The notes below the pieces were generated by a model. It had not been told where the DNA came from, made no database searches, and was given only the letters and a program-made list of their open reading frames with translations. From Nitrospinota bacterium (GTDB taxonomy: Bacteria > Nitrospinota_A > UBA7883 > JACRLM01), in assembly GCA_016235255.1 (NCBI GenBank), contig JACRLM010000031.1, forward strand, positions 43,763 through 107,762: DNA of 64,000 nt, given 5' to 3'. The translations under genes and the position numbers were made by a program. Shown here piece after piece: positions 8,979 to 32,823 of this stretch. How positions within the stretch are numbered: position 1 is the first letter of the stretch; the number at the start of each line of letters is the position of its first letter.

Positions 8979-9749
8979 CTACCCCACCCTCACAATCTTA
9001 CCCGGCCTGTCCTGCCCGGCCACTTCAAACGGTGTTGCGCCGCCGGGCAATGCTTCTTCCGCCATCTGGCGCACCAGATGTGGATTATTGTTCGTTTGCG
9101 ACACGTGGGCGAAGGTGATCCCTTGCAGGTTTGCGTGAACCACGTTTTTCACAAGCTCGAGGCATTGCCCATTTGAAAGGTGCCCGTTGCGGCTGGCGAT
9201 GCGTTGCTTCAACTCCCACGGGTACGGCCCGGCCTTTAGCATCTCGGGATCGTGGTTTGATTCCAGAATCATATAATCGGCCCCGGCTATTTTGCGCTCC
9301 ATAAGCCAGGTCACATATCCCGCGTCCGTCGCCACCGCCAGGCTGATTCCGCCCACCCTGAATATAAACGCGCAAGTGTCCCGCGCGTCGTGCGGGATGG
9401 AGAATGACACCACCTCTATCCCGCATGCGTCAAAAGCGCTTCCGGTGGCGAAATGCTCCACCCGGGGCAATTTCCCCAACCTATCCTTCACCGCATGATG
9501 GGTCTCCCGGTTCATGAATACCGGAACTTTCAAATTGCGCGCAACCACTCCGGCGCCTTTCACATGGTCGTTATGTTCGTGGCTTACCACGATGGCCTTG
9601 ATGTGATCCGGACGTATCCCCGCCTCGCTCAACCTTGCCAGTGTTCCTTTCGCGGAGAAACCCGCGTCCAACAGAATTCCCTCCCGCTCACCGCCAATGA
9701 ATATGGAATTGCCGGACGAACCGGAGCCGAGGACGCAAAGACGCAGCAT
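8979..9749 (-). CDS. MBL-fold metallo-hydrolase (YycJ/PhnP-like)
   Basis: HEHNDHVKG (the HxHxDH metallo-beta-lactamase motif) together with downstream His/Asp ligands. Confidence 0.75.
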   Translation of the reverse strand: MLRLCVLGSGSSGNSIFIGGEREGILLDAGFSAKGTLARLSEAGIRPDHIKAIVVSHEHNDHVKGAGVVARNLKVPVFMNRETHHAVKDRLGKLPRVEHFATGSAFDACGIEVVSFSIPHDARDTCAFIFRVGGISLAVATDAGYVTWLMERKIAGADYMILESNHDPEMLKAGPYPWELKQRIASRNGHLSNGQCLELVKNVVHANLQGITFAHVSQTNNNPHLVRQMAEEALPGGATPFEVAGQDRPGKIVRVG

Positions 9750-24932: not shown

Positions 24933-25010
24933 GCGCCCGTAGCTCAGCCCGGATAGAGCGCCAGATTGCGGTTCTGTAGGTCGCAGGTTCGAATCCTGCC
25001 GGGCGCACCA
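24933..25010 (+). tRNA. tRNA-Arg, anticodon read as GCG (includes the encoded CCA)
   Basis: Manual cloverleaf: acceptor GCGCCCG/CGGGCGC, D-stem GCTC/GAGC with D-loop AGCCCGGATA, anticodon stem CCAGA/TCTGT, loop TTGCGGT, T-arm GCAGG-TTCGAAT-CCTGC, discriminator A, then CCA. Overall similarity to E. coli tRNA-Arg(ACG) is high. Confidence 0.85.
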
Positions 25011-25242: not shown

Positions 25243-26139
25243 TTAACGAATATCAACGATAATCAGGCAGTACAGCAGGGGGAGATGCACCAGGGAGAAA
25301 AAGAAGAGGCTCATCGCCACCTTCCTGCCCGAGAAAACAAACCACAGGGACAGAGAGAAGAACAGGACGCCGGCCGCCATTGCTCCGGCAAGGTAAAACA
25401 GCCCCGCCATCCCGACTACATAAGGCAGAATTGAGACCGCCGCAAGCACAAAGGCCCATATGGCTATCTGCCGCTTGGTCTCGTCCACCCCTCTTTTCAC
25501 CGGCAGGTTCATCACTCCGGCGCTTTTGTACTCATCCATGTACTTTAGGGCGAGCGACCAGAAATGCGGATGCTGCCAGGCGAATATTATCAGGAAAAGC
25601 GTGAGCGCCCAGATGTCCGGAACCGGCTTGATCGCCGCGTAACCTATCACCGGAGGAAGAGCCCCGCCCACGCCGCCCACAAAGGTGGCCAGCGGCGTGC
25701 TGCGCTTGGTCATCAAAGTGTACGGTATGACGTAAATGAACAAGGCCGCCGTGGAATATAGCGCGGCGGCCTTGTTTACATGTGCCGTAAGGATCACAAC
25801 GGAAATGGCGGAAAGCGCCAGCCCGCAATAAAGGGCCTTCAACGGGCTGATCAATCCGGAGGGGAGCGGCCGGCCTGAAGTTCGGCGCATGACAAAATCT
25901 ATATCTCTGTCGATATAGTTGTTCAATGCGGCGGCGCCCGCCGTGGAAAAAGCGGTCCCCAGAAGTGTCCAGAAGACAAGCGCGGGGGCGGGAAGCCCCC
26001 TTTGCGCTATGTACATCCCGGCCAGGGCGGAAACTATCACAAGCGCGATTATCCCCGGCTTTACAAGCGCAAGGTGGTCCAACAGGACCCCTTTAAGGCT
26101 GATCTGCCTCGCTTCAGCGGTGGATACGCGCCCGGACAT
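25243..26139 (-). CDS. ctaB: Protoheme IX farnesyltransferase (heme O synthase)
   Basis: UbiA-family motif NNYIDRDIDFVMRRTSGRPLPSG. The product is polytopic. Confidence 0.9.
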   Translation of the reverse strand: MSGRVSTAEARQISLKGVLLDHLALVKPGIIALVIVSALAGMYIAQRGLPAPALVFWTLLGTAFSTAGAAALNNYIDRDIDFVMRRTSGRPLPSGLISPLKALYCGLALSAISVVILTAHVNKAAALYSTAALFIYVIPYTLMTKRSTPLATFVGGVGGALPPVIGYAAIKPVPDIWALTLFLIIFAWQHPHFWSLALKYMDEYKSAGVMNLPVKRGVDETKRQIAIWAFVLAAVSILPYVVGMAGLFYLAGAMAAGVLFFSLSLWFVFSGRKVAMSLFFFSLVHLPLLYCLIIVDIR

Positions 26140-27033
26140 TTACGCCCTCGCCTCCTCTTGAACCAGCATGTTAAATCCAAGAAGCCCCGGGGCCGACCTG
26201 TAGGCCACCCAGCCGAGCAGCAGGAATCCAAAGGCGCCGTGGCCGACAATCAGGGGGAGGAACATGCCGGAATGCACGATTCCTATGCCCACCGCCCCCT
26301 GCGCCACCACGAGCGAAAACGTTATGACGGAATTGGCCACGTCGCTCTTGTCCTTTATCGCCTTTATCATATAACCGCCGGTGAAAAAGAACACCACATA
26401 CGCCATCAGCCGGTGGACAAAGTGAAGAGCGATACCCGGCTCCGCGAATTCCGGGATCACCTGGCCGTTGCAAAGCGGGAACTCCGCCGAGCAGGCCATG
26501 GCCGCCTGGCTGTACCTGACGAAAATCCCAAGGATCACCTGGAGAAGGATTATGGCGAACATCACAGTATAGACACTGTTTTCCTTCGCCGCCGGAGCCG
26601 TGTCCAGCCGCCGGTAGGCAAGGATCATGAGAATGAAAATGGCCGTGGCCACAATAATGTGGAACGAGATAACCATTATATGCAGAACGCCCTCAAGAAG
26701 CGGCGCCTCCAGCATGACGATCACCCCGCCGAATACCGCGCCAACCCCCAATAGCCCCAACGCCGACATCGTCAGCGCCCTGACAGGCCCCTTTGCCGTC
26801 AACCATACGGAAACCGTCGCGCCTAATATGAAAAGCCCTGTCGCGCCTCCAAGAAGCCTGTGACTCCATTCAATCCATGTCTGTATCTGAAGGGGAGGGA
26901 CTACCGTCCCGTAACACAACGGCCAGTCCGGACAACCCAGGCCGGATCCGGTCGTGGTGACCACGTTCCCCACCACCATAAGAATGTAAGTGAAAGCGAT
27001 TGAGAGCCCGATAAGTATCTTGTTCATGCGCAT
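26140..27033 (-). CDS. ctaA: Heme A synthase (COX15/CtaA)
   Basis: GSGLGCPDWPLCYG and conserved His-containing TM helices are present. Start chosen at MRMNK (ATG 27033) with AGGAA upstream. The stop abuts the ctaB start. Confidence 0.85.
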   Translation of the reverse strand: MRMNKILIGLSIAFTYILMVVGNVVTTTGSGLGCPDWPLCYGTVVPPLQIQTWIEWSHRLLGGATGLFILGATVSVWLTAKGPVRALTMSALGLLGVGAVFGGVIVMLEAPLLEGVLHIMVISFHIIVATAIFILMILAYRRLDTAPAAKENSVYTVMFAIILLQVILGIFVRYSQAAMACSAEFPLCNGQVIPEFAEPGIALHFVHRLMAYVVFFFTGGYMIKAIKDKSDVANSVITFSLVVAQGAVGIGIVHSGMFLPLIVGHGAFGFLLLGWVAYRSAPGLLGFNMLVQEEARA

Positions 27034-27158
27034 TGTTCCTCTACTGCTTTTAATGCTAACAAAGATGTATTTGAAAATATACGCAAACTTTATAAAGAAC
27101 GGCCCGGCTCCGGTATTATACCAGAGCCGGGACCGCATCATTCTACCAGGAACACGCC

Positions 27159-28742
27159 TTATATCGTGTGAGCAGTATGCTTACCGTAGTTATAAGGCGA
27201 CCAATCCGCCGACACGGTCGGAGGAGTGGGGAAGTTGCCGGCCCCCGGAGGATACACGGTGTGTGTCCACTCCAGCGACTTGGAACCCCACGGATTGTGA
27301 GGGGCCTTCTCGCCGGCGATGGCGCCGTGGATCCAGGTGATGATCGTGATGGCCATGCCAAGGGCGATGATAAGGGCGCCGACAGTGGCGATCTTCATCG
27401 CGCCTTCAAACTGCGGGAACATGGCATAGTCGAAATACCTCCTGGGCATCCCTTCCACGCCGATCCACATCAGCGGAGCGAAGGTCACGTTCACGCCGAT
27501 GAAATTGAGCAGGAAGCCCAGCTTGCCGAGGGTCTCGTTGTACATCCGGCCGGTCATAAGCGGGAACCAGAAATAGACCCCCGCAAACACCGCGAATGTG
27601 GCCATGATTCCCATTATGTAATGGAAGTGGGCCATAACGAAGTATGTCTCGGAAAGATGCAGCGTCATCGAGGTCATGGACAGCGGGATACCGGTCAGCC
27701 CGCCCGCCAGGATCAGGAACAGCTCGGAGGCCGCGTACAGCATCGGGGTGTTGTACTGGATGGAACCCTTGTACAGCGTCCCCACCATGGTCAAGACCAG
27801 CAGACCCACCGGGATGGAGATGATGATCGTCGTCATCATCATGCCGATCCTGAGCCAGTCCACAAGACCTGAAACGTACAGGTGGTGGGCCCACACGTCC
27901 GAACCGAGCACCACAGTCCCCCACACGCCGCCATAAACACAGGTCTTATAGTTGAATATGGGGTTGCGGGACATGGTGGAGAGTATCTCAAGGATGGTCC
28001 CGATGGCCGGCAGCAGAATAACGTACACCGCCGGGTGCGAATAGAACCAGAACAGGTTCTGGTATAAAAGCACGTCGCCACCCTGGGCCGGCGCGAAGAA
28101 CGCCGTGCCGAAATACTTGTCAAAGAGAACCAAAGTCACCGCCGCGGCGAGCACGGGGATGAAGATCAATTGCAGGACGAACGCGCCCAGAACGGTCCAC
28201 ACGAAGATGTTCAGTTGGTTCCAGCCCAGGCCTGGCGCCCTCATGTAGATCACGGTGCAAAGGAAGTTGACCGCGCCGAGGATGGACGAGAAGCCCATCA
28301 GGTGCACGGTGAACACGTAGAAAGAAGTGTTCCCGGCCGTCTGCACGGAGTACGGGGGATAGCCCGTCCACATGACATCAGGCGGATCCGGGATGACGAA
28401 AGTCAGAAGAGCAAGAACGATGGCGAACCAGAAGAGCCACACCGAGAACGAGTTGATCCTCGGGAAGGCCACGTCGTGCGCGCCTATCATTATCGGGATG
28501 AGGTAGTTCGCCAAAAACCCTGTCAGCCCCGGTATCAGGAACGCCAAGATCATCGCGGCGCCGTGGAAATACAACCATACGTTGTAGTTCGTGGCGTCGC
28601 TTGTGATTGTCGGCCCCAGGCCCGACTGTTCAAGCCGTATCAGAAGGGCCATTATCCCGGCGACAGCGAACGCCGCGATGGACCCTACCAGATACAGGAT
28701 GCCGATCCTTTTATGATCGGTTGAAAAAATCCAATCCTTCAT
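27159..28742 (-). CDS. ctaD: Cytochrome c oxidase subunit I
   Basis: MKDWIFSTDHKRIGILYLV, the heme-copper oxidase His ligands, and WAHHLYVSG.. / HFHYIMG motifs. AGGA RBS is present. Confidence 0.95.
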   Translation of the reverse strand: MKDWIFSTDHKRIGILYLVGSIAAFAVAGIMALLIRLEQSGLGPTITSDATNYNVWLYFHGAAMILAFLIPGLTGFLANYLIPIMIGAHDVAFPRINSFSVWLFWFAIVLALLTFVIPDPPDVMWTGYPPYSVQTAGNTSFYVFTVHLMGFSSILGAVNFLCTVIYMRAPGLGWNQLNIFVWTVLGAFVLQLIFIPVLAAAVTLVLFDKYFGTAFFAPAQGGDVLLYQNLFWFYSHPAVYVILLPAIGTILEILSTMSRNPIFNYKTCVYGGVWGTVVLGSDVWAHHLYVSGLVDWLRIGMMMTTIIISIPVGLLVLTMVGTLYKGSIQYNTPMLYAASELFLILAGGLTGIPLSMTSMTLHLSETYFVMAHFHYIMGIMATFAVFAGVYFWFPLMTGRMYNETLGKLGFLLNFIGVNVTFAPLMWIGVEGMPRRYFDYAMFPQFEGAMKIATVGALIIALGMAITIITWIHGAIAGEKAPHNPWGSKSLEWTHTVYPPGAGNFPTPPTVSADWSPYNYGKHTAHTI

Positions 28743-28817
28743 GCCTATATCCTTTCATTTCAAGCCTATTTTCCGTAAAGCCGACGAACCCCAAGCCCGC
28801 CGGCCTCTTTAAAACCG

Positions 28818-29639
28818 TTACTTTCCGGCGGCCGGAGCAGCCGGAGCGGCGGCGCCTTCAGCTGCCGGAGCGGCCGGGGCAGCGCCCTCAGCCGGAGCGG
28901 CCGGAGCCGGAGTTGCTGCGCCACTCTTGGCAAGGATCATTTCCTCAAACTTGGCTGCGGGAATGACCTTCACCTTGCCGAACATGTTCGAATGACCAAC
29001 GCCGCAATACTCGGTGCAGGTGAGCACGTTCTCCCCGATCTGCTTGGGCAGGAACCACTCGTAAGTGATGCGCCCAGGCATAACGTCTTCCTTCACGCGG
29101 TAATCGGGAAGGAAGAAGGAGTGGACCACGTCTTCGCTGTGCATCCGGAGGACAACAGGCTGCCCCTGAGGAACGAAAAGCTGCGGCCTGCCGTTGGCGT
29201 CCGCCTCGGCGACGACTCCGTTGCCGTAGTCGAACTCCCAGTTGTACATCATTGCGGTCAGTTTGACTTCCCTGGCGTTCACAGGGACGGTCCTCTGGTT
29301 GATCCACAGCTTGAAGCCATTGGCGGCCAGATACATATCGTCCGCCAGGAACACAAACACCGGGACAAGCGTCCAGGCCAGCGAGCCGCCCAGCGACAAT
29401 CCCGGAAGGCTGCCCTCTTCGTTCTCGCTCTTCCTCACGAAAGACACGAGCATGTAAATCGATATCAGCCCGAAAACAACGCCAATCGCGCCCAGGTCTA
29501 GCACCAGATGGCCCCAAAGATTGTTCCAACCCTCGGTGTGGTCATGGATAGCCCCCTCGGCGGCCGGTGCGGCTGATGACGCCATAGCCGTCAATGGAGC
29601 GGCAGCCATCATAGCCGCCGTAAACACCCATTTCTTCAT
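28818..29639 (-). CDS. ctaC: Cytochrome c oxidase subunit II (CuA) with a C-terminal Ala/Pro-rich tail
   Basis: CTEYCGVGHSNM is the CuA motif. Two N-terminal TM helices. The C-terminus is PAPAAPAEGAAPAAPAAEGAAAPAAPAAGK. The start overlaps the SCO1 stop (ATGA). Confidence 0.9.
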   Translation of the reverse strand: MKKWVFTAAMMAAAPLTAMASSAAPAAEGAIHDHTEGWNNLWGHLVLDLGAIGVVFGLISIYMLVSFVRKSENEEGSLPGLSLGGSLAWTLVPVFVFLADDMYLAANGFKLWINQRTVPVNAREVKLTAMMYNWEFDYGNGVVAEADANGRPQLFVPQGQPVVLRMHSEDVVHSFFLPDYRVKEDVMPGRITYEWFLPKQIGENVLTCTEYCGVGHSNMFGKVKVIPAAKFEEMILAKSGAATPAPAAPAEGAAPAAPAAEGAAAPAAPAAGK

Positions 29640-30487
29640 ATTTTAGTCTCCTTGCCTCTCTTCACTTTTTTCCTCTGAATATTGGCGGCGAATAAAAACG
29701 CCGCCACTCCCGTCAACAATGAACCGAAAGAAACGAAAAGCGGATAATTGAGCCGGTACTTGCCATCCTTGAAGTTATAGCTGTAGCACATGCTCATCGC
29801 TATATTGCCCGCGTCCGCCGGCTTGAGCTGCTCGAACTTGCTTTCCAATATCGCAAGCTCCATGTCCCGCGCGTCGGAAACCTGGCTTTGAAGGATTCGA
29901 AGGACCCTGCCCTCGGGGGAAATGAAATAATACGCGCTTGAGTGGAAGAACATCCTGTCGGCGGGAGACCAGAAGAACTTGAAACCAACATTCGAAGTGA
30001 GCTTTTTGATGTCCTCATGATCCTTGAAGGTGGCCACATACCAGCTGCCCTTCATGTCCGATGGAATCCCAAGGCTCTTCGAAAATATTTCCGCGCTCGA
30101 CGCATTGTCGTTCTTGTCGAAAGACAGGGTCAACACGGAAAAGTCCTTGCCGATCTTCACGTTCTTTAACGCCTGCGCCTTGTCGAGCACCTTTTTCAGG
30201 TCGCCGTTGAAGGCCGGGCAGAATCCGTCGCAAGAATAATAGGAAAGGACCATGATCACAGGCCTGCCACGCAGGTCTTTCATGGAAAATTCCTTCCCGT
30301 CGCTCCCTACGAAGGTCAGTCCGCCGTCAAGCTTGGTCCCGAGGACGTTGATCTCGTCAACCAGCAAGGTCGCCGGATCAAGCTCGGACTCGGGCGGGCG
30401 GAATCCCTGGGCGCTCCCTTGCGCCGCGAAAAACAGGATAAGCGCGGCCGCCATCACAACGGCCCGGTGCTTCCCAAACGTGTACAC
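29636..30487 (-). CDS. SCO1/SenC copper chaperone (thioredoxin-like)
   Basis: YYSCDGFCP is the CxxxC copper-binding motif. A signal peptide or anchor is at the N-terminus. The gene sits between oxidase subunits III and II. GTG start at 30487; an alternative ATG is 11 codons in. Confidence 0.75.
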   Translation of the reverse strand: MYTFGKHRAVVMAAALILFFAAQGSAQGFRPPESELDPATLLVDEINVLGTKLDGGLTFVGSDGKEFSMKDLRGRPVIMVLSYYSCDGFCPAFNGDLKKVLDKAQALKNVKIGKDFSVLTLSFDKNDNASSAEIFSKSLGIPSDMKGSWYVATFKDHEDIKKLTSNVGFKFFWSPADRMFFHSSAYYFISPEGRVLRILQSQVSDARDMELAILESKFEQLKPADAGNIAMSMCYSYNFKDGKYRLNYPLFVSFGSLLTGVAAFLFAANIQRKKVKRGKETKI

Positions 30488-30502
30488 TTGATTATCCCCG
30501 AA

Positions 30503-31276
30503 TTACCAGATGTAAACCTGGCTCACAACGAAGAACCAAACGATATCAACGAAGTGCCAGTAAATCCCGGCCCCCTTCACGAAAGTGTGGCTCACAGCCC
30601 CGCCAAGCGCCGGTATCAGTATCGCGATGAACGCGCACAGGCCGACGAGAACGTGGGAAGCGTGGAAGCCGGTTATCGAGTAGAACGCCGTGCTCTTCGC
30701 GTTGGTGCCCCACACGAAACCTTCGCTGAGAAGATGGTTGTATTCATAGGCCGTGCAGCCAAGGAATACGGCGCCCAATGCTATGCTCACCATCAGCCAG
30801 GTGTTGAACCCGCCCTTGTCTCCCTCTTCGATCCTCATTTCACCGAGGTGGTATGTGACCGAGGAAGTGACCAGTATCACGGTCATAATCAGAGGAAGGG
30901 TCACGCCTATCTCCGGAGAACCCGCAGGCGGCCACACGTCGGCGGACATCCTCATTGTCCAGTAAGCGGCGAAAAGAGACAGGAATATCATGACTTCCGA
31001 AACGATGAAGATCGGAAGGCCTGTCAGGGAGTAGCCGTGCTCATGATCCCTGTTTGCGATGCCTTCCTTCGTCCAACCAGCGACCCCCCAGATCAAAAGC
31101 GGCGTCCCAATGCCAAGGGCGGCTATGCCCATGGTGGCGTTGTGATACTGGAAAAAGAGGCCGAATGCGATTGGAATCGCGAAAAAGATGCCCGCCACCA
31201 GAATCAGCGGATAAACGCTTGATTCCCAGTGATGGACGGTATGGCCTTGGCCACCATGGCCCTCGTTATGCGCCAT
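30503..31276 (-). CDS. ctaE: Cytochrome c oxidase subunit III
   Basis: HHWESSVYPL, FYSITGFHASHVLVG and WHFVDIVWFFVVSQVYIW are present. Start chosen at MAHNEG (ATG 31276), preceded by GGGGGAGGG 5 nt upstream. The longer listed ORF (to 31339) lacks an RBS. Confidence 0.9.
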   Translation of the reverse strand: MAHNEGHGGQGHTVHHWESSVYPLILVAGIFFAIPIAFGLFFQYHNATMGIAALGIGTPLLIWGVAGWTKEGIANRDHEHGYSLTGLPIFIVSEVMIFLSLFAAYWTMRMSADVWPPAGSPEIGVTLPLIMTVILVTSSVTYHLGEMRIEEGDKGGFNTWLMVSIALGAVFLGCTAYEYNHLLSEGFVWGTNAKSTAFYSITGFHASHVLVGLCAFIAILIPALGGAVSHTFVKGAGIYWHFVDIVWFFVVSQVYIW

Positions 31277-31705
31277 AAAAACCCTCCCCCATAATGTTAG
31301 TTGATAAAAACCTAAAGCCCACCCACGCGCGCAATGCATATACGCGTGGAATTAAACCGTTTTTTCTGACCGATCCAGGACACTTTAGTTAACAAGACTT
31401 TGTTTGAATTTCTCCCCCCCCACTTTCGCTGAACCCATTTAGCGCCGGATGCCCCTCTCAAGGCCCGCGCGTTTATGAAATCAACGATTTGGAGATAAAT
31501 CAAGGTCTCTATATACCTTGATGTTCTTGACTTTTTACATTAACCGGCATGTATTGTCAAGTGATTACTTTTCGGGAAGGGAAAATTACTTGTTTACGGA
31601 TTGACAGCGCTTACAAGACAAAAACGAGGACATATGTCCACAATTGCGCAAGTTTTTTCCGGGAGCCTTTCAAAATCGTGGCCCGATGGCTCCAATGCGC
31701 CGTTT

Positions 31706-31995
31706 TTACGGCTTTTCCCGGGCAGTAATCACAATGGCGGAGCCGTCATGGTCAACTATCACATCATCCCCTATCACATCATCCCCGCCGAGCACATTTC
31801 CTTCGACGATCATCATCGAGAGTTTGTCGAGTATCTGGGCCTGGATAGCCTTTTTAGCGGCCTGACGCCGAATGTTTCGTCATACCCGGCCTGCGCAAGG
31901 TACGCGGCGGCCGCGGGAGTGACAATAATGCCGATGTTCTTTTTGGCAAGCCTTTCCTCCACATTTTCATCTGCAGCCACGCCACGCCGGCTATC
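31706..31995 (-). pseudogene. Relic C-terminal fragment of a Clp/Hsp100 ATPase (ClpB/ClpA/ClpC C-terminal D2-small domain), frameshifted
   Basis: Minus-strand translation gives ...RLAKKNIGIIVTPAAAAYLAQAGYDETFGVRPLKR; a 1-nt slip in an A-run near 31848 then continues AIQAQILDKLSMMIVEGNVLGGDDVIGDDVIVDHDGSAIVITAREKP*. This matches the ClpB C-terminus ...GYDPVYGARPLKRAIQ...ILSGE..G..I.VD. There is no upstream ATPase body (stop at 31996-31998). The listed + ORF 31601..32023 is antisense to it. Confidence 0.55.
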
Positions 31996-32142
31996 TACTC
32001 CCGGTCCAGTTTGTGGAAAATAATGGTGTCGTACAGCCTGCTTAAAAACTCATAGATAATACCTGCGGCAGGCAAGTCATGGTTTTACATGCTCATAAAA
32101 ATATACTTGACTATAAACTTAGATAGCAGCATATATTTAATC

Positions 32143-32823
32143 ATGAGACATAAACAATTGTCCCTTCGGGAAAAGAAGTTCGCCAGAACCAAGCAAAAAC
32201 TGCTGGATGCGGCGCTGGCCCTTATGGCGCAAAAACCACTGGAAGAAGTGACCGTCGCCGAAATATGCCATGCGGCGGAGGTCTCATACGCCACCTTCTT
32301 CAACTATTTCGCCAGAAAAACAGACCTGCTTGTTTATTTCATCCAGCTTTGGAGCGTGGAAGTTTCATGGCGCGCAAGGATGACCTACGAAGAAGGTGGG
32401 GGGAGCGTTGCGGCCATCGAGGCGATTTTCGCCCATACCGCCAGCCTTTGCGAGAAAAACCCGGAGGTGATGGAGGAGATCGTCGCGTTCCAGTCCCGAA
32501 AAAGGAACATGGAAAACATCTCGGCCATTCCTCTCACCATTGCGGAAAAAGCACTCCGGTTCCCCCAGATCGAAGATTTCCAGGAATTGGGGGACTTGGG
32601 ATTGGAATCGGTATTGCCCCCCCTCATCAAAACGGCCATCGCTAATGGCGAACTTCCCTCCGGGGCGGATGTGGACGGGATTATGCTTTCGCTGGCGGTG
32701 ATATTCCTTGGAACGCCGGTGGTTGTGGCGTCCCACAGGATGATAGGGCTTGGCGAGGCTTACAAACGGCAGTTGGCGCTCCTATGGACGGGGGCACGTG
32801 GGCGCCACGCCGGGAATATATAG
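32143..32823 (+). CDS. TetR/AcrR-family transcriptional regulator
   Basis: VAEICHAAEVSYATFFNYFARKTDLL is the TetR HTH. Possible promoter TTGACT at 32107-32112 with a -10-like TATATT 8 nt before the ATG (near-leaderless). Confidence 0.75.
   Translation: MRHKQLSLREKKFARTKQKLLDAALALMAQKPLEEVTVAEICHAAEVSYATFFNYFARKTDLLVYFIQLWSVEVSWRARMTYEEGGGSVAAIEAIFAHTASLCEKNPEVMEEIVAFQSRKRNMENISAIPLTIAEKALRFPQIEDFQELGDLGLESVLPPLIKTAIANGELPSGADVDGIMLSLAVIFLGTPVVVASHRMIGLGEAYKRQLALLWTGARGRHAGNI

Follow-up and report, generated by a model that had tools for sequence, protein, structure and literature searches.

Among the class-I Clp/Hsp100 ATPases, ClpB is recognised by a coiled-coil M-domain inserted in NBD1 and by having no ClpP-binding loop, and ClpC and ClpA by a ClpP-docking IGF/IGL loop in D2 together with an adaptor-binding N-domain. 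A bacterial genome, in Nitrospinota as elsewhere, normally includes clpB and clpA/clpC.

The locus studied here lies in an uncultured Nitrospinota metagenome-assembled genome (MAG), within a 64-kb window, by which we mean the whole stretch of DNA that was analysed. It is homologous to ClpB and ClpC over roughly the final 105 of 853 profile positions, where one can recognise the EFLNRxD motif closing the D2 large domain, a helical D2-small domain, a sensor-2 motif of the form G(A/V)RPLKR, the C-terminal beta-strand region and the usual stop site. It is unlike both in being without the N-domain, both ATPase modules, the M-domain and the pore loops, and in carrying a stop, two frameshifts, a 2-codon gap, a 5-codon duplication and substitutions of near-invariant residues.

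The literature on prokaryotes amply documents truncated remnants, deletional bias and failed transfers (PMC522871, PMC2817411, PMC2916853), failed horizontal transfer being a common source of prokaryotic pseudogenes (PMC522871). The comparisons reported below argue that the locus is very probably a non-functional orphan piece of a class-I Clp/Hsp100 pseudogene, left behind by a deletion or rearrangement and decaying without selection.

Identity of the remnant

The remnant, its lesions and its terminal stop are located as follows:

31706..32051, minus strand: Clp remnant, comprising the end of the D2 large domain (EFLNRxD), D2-small and the natural C-terminus (Pfam, PDB, NCBIfam)
31997-31995, minus strand: nonsense codon TAG, at a position that is Q/E in relatives; CAG->TAG is a single C-to-T change
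31976..31988, minus strand: frameshifting 5-nt tandem duplication, GGCGT GGCGT GGC (GCCAC x2.6 on the plus strand)
31849..31855, minus strand: 1-nt deletion in the homopolymer context CTAAAAAGG^CT, shifting the frame between ...GVRPLKR and AIQAQ...
31756..31785, minus strand: perfect in-frame 15-nt tandem duplication, GDDVI GDDVI (Tandem Repeats Finder period 15, 2.1 copies, 100% match)
31708-31706, minus strand: TAA stop, at the place where family members end; the C-termini align and the match extends to profile position 842/853

Translated from the minus strand and joined across three frames, the remnant reads EFLSRLYDTIIFHKLDRE*IA / GVAADENVEERLAKKNIGIIVTPAAAAYLAQAGYDETFGVRPLKR / AIQAQILDKLSMMIVEGNVLGGDDVIGDDVIVDHDGSAIVITAREKP*, the asterisks marking stops. 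For the searches described here the three frame pieces were joined and the stop was replaced by Q, giving a repaired peptide of 113 aa. This peptide matches Pfam PF10431, ClpB_D2-small, with E=2e-18 (66.7 bits, cut-off 21.9), and the unedited middle piece by itself matches the same domain with E=1.3e-10. In the PDB, 43 distinct solved Clp/Hsp100 chains match the repaired peptide, the best being S. aureus ClpC (E=6.3e-18, residues about 700-800 of 818), after which comes a T. thermophilus ClpB chain at about 3e-14 and, much weaker, E. coli ClpA. The top NCBIfam model is ClpB TIGR03346 (E=1.7e-19, 69.7 bits, profile positions 749-842/853), with ClpA second at 53.5 bits; ClpG and ClpK reach 28.7 and 26.5 bits, so that neither of these families gives the best match, and the TssH model (ClpV/TssH) is not among the NCBIfam matches at E<=0.01. 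A resemblance to Clp that dissolved below significance in a real search was the outcome the first-pass annotation had named as fatal to its reading, and the E values obtained with Pfam, the PDB and NCBIfam dispose of it.

Judged by these matches, the remnant (32051..31706, minus strand) encodes the D2-small domain of a class-I Clp/Hsp100 protein, preceded by the tail of the second ATPase module. The pointers to subtype disagree, with the best NCBIfam model and most of the named nearest relatives being ClpB and the best solved structure being ClpC; the preserved sequence is not assignable to ClpB as against ClpC, since the M-domain and the ClpP loop belonged to the portion that was deleted.

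At about 115 codons the remnant represents about 12-14% of a roughly 850-codon parent. It had at first been described as an orphan C-terminal fragment holding the last ~95 codons of a Clp gene, a description that stands as to its nature and needs revision as to its length, since the homology reaches 32051 and not 31995, some 56 nt or 20 codons farther. When two full-length Clp proteins, P0053 (829 aa) and P0039 (709 aa), were compared by tblastn with the 64-kb window, they matched at 31846-31974 only and at nothing else with E<0.1. The N-terminal Clp_N domain and the two AAA+ modules, with their Walker A/B motifs and pore loops, are absent across the 64 kb in this tblastn comparison, which bears out the earlier remark that there is no ATPase body. 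Significant family homology is thus confined to a small share of the gene, about 105/853 profile positions, with the remainder absent.

Lesions and reading frame

The frame is interrupted by the TAG, the 5-nt duplication and the 1-nt deletion. What had been taken for a stop immediately upstream of the fragment is actually an internal nonsense codon, as 18 well-aligned codons (EFLNRxDxxxxFxxL) precede the TAG. Deleting one copy of the 5-nt duplication (31976-31988) brings back ...IAGVAADENV.... The 1-nt loss at 31849-31855 can be read equally well as A6 -> A5 or as GGG -> GG, and the middle and last frame pieces have base 31849 in common; the 1-nt indel reported earlier in an A-run is therefore present, though the run affected may be the A-run or the GGG, and it is one of at least three disabling lesions and not the single one.

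Two further changes leave the frame intact. The 15-nt duplication coincides exactly with a 5-residue insertion that the alignments show in no relative, and the second in-frame change is a 2-codon gap. Given its position relative to the ends of family members, the TAA at 31708-31706 is probably the parent gene's own stop codon.

Authenticity and present annotation

Two Logan assemblies, from runs SRR12113394 and SRR12113407, reproduce the window's DNA at 100% identity throughout the spacer and with every lesion in place; the ORFs encoded in the remnant region are present on 4 contigs, and the same proteins are found on the 146,553-bp NCBI MAG contig. The lesions are genuine and not assembly errors, because they are identical in the assemblies of two runs and in the NCBI contig.

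Two ORFs have been called as genes within the remnant region:

31813..31980, minus strand: 55-codon GTG-start ORF in the middle frame of the remnant, GenBank MBI5814712.1, 'hypothetical protein HZB29_03790'
31748..32023, plus strand: 91-aa antisense 'shadow' ORF that the Logan assemblies list as a gene

The neighbouring accessions are MBI5814711.1 (COX3) and MBI5814713.1 (TetR). Searched against Pfam, the 55-aa and 91-aa ORFs gave no family match beyond the Clp homology. By its homology MBI5814712.1 is a mis-annotated pseudogene piece and not a hypothetical protein; the 91-aa antisense ORF, which has no family match and whose 90%-identity cluster contains only itself, is a shadow ORF and an annotation artefact of the pseudogene. 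The practical result of this study is accordingly an annotation correction for MBI5814712.1 / HZB29_03790.

Signs of relaxed constraint

The remnant violates the family consensus at 9 of the 31 columns that are >=85% conserved, against a mean of 1.5 among 134 family members, a comparison set that consists of top profile matches and is biased toward consensus-like sequences. The violated columns include N->S (AGC) and D->Y (TAC) in EFLNRxD and A->V in GARPL, and the N->S and D->Y codons are each one base away from the consensus codon, as is the case for CAG->TAG. The sensor-2 motif, which is of the GARPLxR type, is kept as GVRPLKR, the A->V change falling in a column that is 99% A. GVRPL is also present in the full-length match P0039, presumably a ClpL-like protein by its appearance, and some of the nine violations may go back to a parent that was divergent yet functional.

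Third-position GC content (GC3) is 0.63 in the remnant and 0.74 +/- 0.06 in windows of equal size taken from neighbouring genes, and coding periodicity (GC1>GC2) is still detectable. No orthologous remnant and no closely related intact gene was found among the relatives' loci compared.

The spacer and its promoters

The remnant lies in a spacer of 866 nt between COX3 (start 31276, minus strand) and tetR (start 32143, plus strand), so that its placement between the oxidase operon and a TetR regulator in an AT-richer stretch, as first described, is confirmed: GC content is 0.44 at 31277-31705, 0.53 in the remnant and 0.27 at 32076-32142, against 0.57 for the window. Two blocks that are conserved in relatives are found in this AT-enriched spacer:

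31560-31532, minus strand: putative cox-operon promoter, TTGACA-17 nt-TAAAAA, about 255 nt upstream of the COX3 start at 31276, aligning with L034 (about 255-330 nt upstream of COX3 in that comparison)
about 32094..32145, plus strand: putative tetR promoter/operator, AAAAATATACTTGACT-17 nt-CATATA, then the ATG at 32143, conserved in nine Nitrospinota loci

L034 (GCA_016208975.1, COX3 83% identical) is the closest relative available for the cox operon. When the spacer is compared with it, the TTGACA block (at L034 about 9690-9725) and a short RBS stretch beside the COX3 start align and nothing else does. The block at 31560-31532 is probably the cox promoter, and its distance from COX3 would therefore imply a long cox 5' leader. 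In the tetR block (window 32094-32145; L003-L006, L023-L026) the pattern AAAAATATACTTGnnT..TTAGATAG.AGTATATAT is strongly conserved, and among the nine tetR-lnt loci conservation ends upstream of about 32094; we infer that this block is the tetR promoter. The remnant is situated between the two blocks, its truncated 5' end about 40 nt from the tetR block; it is oriented in the same direction as the cox operon, yet lies upstream of the cox promoter.

Little else emerged from the spacer. Scans of it for promoter-like and terminator-like sites stay at the level expected from shuffling, no Rfam family was matched within it, the 3' flank of the remnant folds no better than shuffles (z=-0.73), and a six-frame Pfam scan of 31277-31720 detected no other gene remnants. 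A 20-nt inverted repeat (31568-31587 / 32156-32175, 17/20 complementary) encloses the remnant together with the tetR promoter, and each of its arms is itself partly palindromic, with the core TTCGGGAA. An inverted duplication of the tetR 5' end flanking the remnant was considered for this repeat and rejected, as the alignment covers 20 nt only and its score is reached in 5/500 shuffles; it is probably due to chance.

Gene order and the junction

The cox operon (25243-31276, minus strand) has the order COX3, a 283-aa SCO1/SenC-like ORF, COX2, COX1, CtaA, CtaB. In relatives that are 75-83% identical (L034, L037) it forms a conserved block with entirely different flanks, the genes upstream of it being a chemoreceptor (MCP) gene in one relative and vsr with a DNA methylase in another. 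The tetR-lnt pair is likewise conserved, in relatives 46-57% identical (GTDB genomes, JGI metagenomes), and its upstream neighbours vary between genomes. The gene after tetR is the apolipoprotein N-acyltransferase gene (lnt) in all nine Nitrospinota loci, and this conserved pairing of a regulator with lnt may merit separate study. No Clp gene or fragment is present at the cox or tetR-lnt loci of the relatives compared.

The earlier suggestion of a deletion or rearrangement scar is supported by this arrangement, in which the blocks on either side are each conserved, what lies beyond them varies, and relatives have no Clp at the junction. As read from gene order, the remnant is a scar at a lineage-specific joint between the cox and tetR-lnt blocks, because each block has different outer neighbours in relatives, none of them with Clp. 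The synteny comparison that had been proposed for finding out what was lost gave part of the answer, namely that the neighbours differ and include no Clp, but no available genome is close enough to reveal the ancestral state.

One tRNA gene lies near the cox operon:

24933-25010: tRNA-Arg(GCG), just beyond the distal end of the cox operon

The idea that the cox operon is a tRNA-integrated island ending at the remnant was rejected, as there is no direct repeat of the tRNA 3' end near the remnant. Att-like direct repeats were not found around the cox operon. As a separate observation, the 3' end of COX2 (28826-28909, minus strand) encodes an Ala/Pro-rich low-complexity tail, …PAPAAPAEGAAPAAPAAEGAAAPAAPAAGK, in imperfect ~24-nt repeats.

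Closest relatives

A word-index search with the repaired 113-aa peptide against 5.8 billion proteins, a collection that includes the MAG's own NCBI proteins, returned nothing at E<=1e-5. When the 45-aa unedited middle piece was compared exhaustively by phmmer with 1.84 billion cluster representatives, only the remnant's own ORF was found above 62% identity. Over the whole fragment the best relatives recovered by the exhaustive and profile searches are P0181 (56%) and P0044 (51%), and most of the named matches are ClpB. A resident paralogue at least 60-70% identical to the remnant should have surfaced in the word-index search, and a recent partial duplicate, i.e., a recent copy of a resident paralogue, is therefore unlikely on this sequence evidence.

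P0044, which over the whole length of the remnant is its second-closest relative after P0181, also calls for a remark. It is a complete 219-aa ORF (L041 643-1302, L042 211-870) in which a ClpB-type Clp_N is fused to EFLNR/D2-small with both AAA+ modules missing, and it occurs with flanking genes on contigs of two samples (SRR22388331, SRR22387924); P0218 has the same Pfam pair. ORFs of the P0044 type could be a 'mini-Clp' produced by in-frame internal deletion or a recurrent assembly collapse.

Discussion

The history that best accommodates these results would run as follows. A ClpB/ClpC-like gene would once have stood on the minus strand, in the same direction as the cox operon. A deletion or rearrangement would have taken roughly 2.2 kb of it (86-88% of the gene), namely the promoter, the N-domain and the two ATPase modules, and the same event would have put the tetR-lnt block beside the cox block, leaving the last ~115 codons and the original stop in an untranscribed or poorly transcribed spacer between divergent promoters. 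Later drift without selection would account for one nonsense change, two slippage frameshifts, two in-frame indels and substitutions at invariant residues, and the remnant as it now stands would give no chaperone product and have no evident role. We infer three parts of this account: the order of events, the prior divergence of the parent, which may have been an acquired accessory paralogue, and the transcriptional silence of the spacer.

One point sits awkwardly with it: one stop and two frameshifts in 346 nt suggest a remnant that is not extremely old, which is difficult to reconcile with identities of <=56% unless the parent was unusual. Modest neutral decay of an already divergent parent is therefore what the sequence suggests, because it carries one stop and a handful of indels only; a lost accessory paralogue and a failed horizontal transfer would both fit.

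The same figures bear on the proposal, made in the first-pass annotation, that the fragment is a decayed partial duplicate whose 3' piece was copied or translocated from an intact ClpB/ClpC paralogue elsewhere in the genome. Its assignment to the Clp family (Pfam, PDB, NCBIfam) is compatible with such an origin, and a Nitrospinota bacterium would normally have both clpB and clpA/clpC to copy from, but we consider this origin unlikely: a source at least 60-70% identical shares many 5-mers with the repaired peptide and the search of 5.8 billion proteins was empty at E<=1e-5, with the qualification that the MAG is possibly incomplete; the closest relatives found reach 51-56% identity only; and neutral drift to such divergence should have left many more stops and indels than are seen. 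Least credible of all is an artefact, in which sequencing errors would have broken an intact gene or the assembly would have made a chimeric join. The window does come from a metagenome-assembled genome, and D2-small-only ORFs on other long contigs are error- or frameshift-split full-length Clp genes; here, however, tblastn places no ATPase body on either side of the remnant, the junction as well as every lesion recurs in the NCBI contig and in assemblies made independently from separate runs, and a 5-nt and a 15-nt tandem duplication together with a nonsense substitution are atypical of short-read errors.

Nor does it seem at all likely that the DNA has been exapted, be it for promoter spacing or insulation, as a binding site, as an antisense or leader RNA, or as the source of a small D2-small-like peptide made from the 55-aa ORF. 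Such a role would agree with the position of the remnant exactly between two promoter blocks, with the 55-aa ORF and the 91-aa antisense ORF being open and called as genes, and with the 20-nt inverted repeat bracketing remnant and tetR promoter. Against it, the 55-aa ORF starts with GTG, without a Shine-Dalgarno sequence at a usable distance and without half of the domain, and the notion that it is expressed as a regulatory peptide is speculative; promoter-like and terminator-like sites are at the level of shuffled sequence, there is no Rfam match, and the 3' flank folds no better than shuffles; the inverted repeat is marginal (5/500 shuffles); and relatives run both promoters without such an insert.

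The orphan pseudogene reading, which we prefer, leaves room for a bolder version, in which the remnant would be the sole trace of an unsampled divergent lineage of accessory Clp/Hsp100 paralogues (<=56% identity to any of ~15 billion predicted proteins) or, more speculatively, the HZB29_03790 peptide would interfere with or regulate resident Clp hexamers. We give this version very little credence as a whole; its first part, an unsampled divergent paralogue lineage, is plausible and of little consequence. The biological importance of the remnant is very small and it opens no long-standing question. It marks the junction where the cox operon and the tetR-lnt block were joined in one Nitrospinota lineage, and it illustrates that small 'hypothetical' ORFs in MAGs can be relics of recognisable genes.

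Many short ORFs in the profile search match only D2-small. A stand-alone D2-small protein family was considered for them and rejected, since two examples checked on long contigs turned out to be pieces of frameshift-split full-length genes. In these loci (L039 1758-7035, L040 3349-4402; ERZ25039603, ERZ25039600) the Clp genes are split into three to five adjacent ORFs, L039 having two tandem split Clp genes; the splits are likely to be long-read assembly indel errors, the other possibility being genuine pseudogenisation. Such frameshift-split genes resemble the present locus in also giving short ORFs that match only ClpB_D2-small, and differ from it in having Clp_N and AAA pieces directly upstream as adjacent ORFs, whereas around the remnant the 32 kb to each side contain no other part of the gene.

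The closer likeness is to the truncated pseudogenes of bacteria (PMC522871, PMC2916853, PMC3164680, PMC9336565), from which nothing essential distinguishes the remnant, its only oddity being that no known relative exceeds 56% identity, so that the parent lineage would be unsampled. As in those cases, a short recognisable fragment with disabling lesions persists in an AT-enriched spacer, at a place where gene order varies among relatives and where pipelines annotate a small hypothetical ORF. The remnant is, in this respect, an ordinary truncated pseudogene, consistent with the deletional bias and pseudogene turnover described for bacteria (PMC2817411, PMC2916853).
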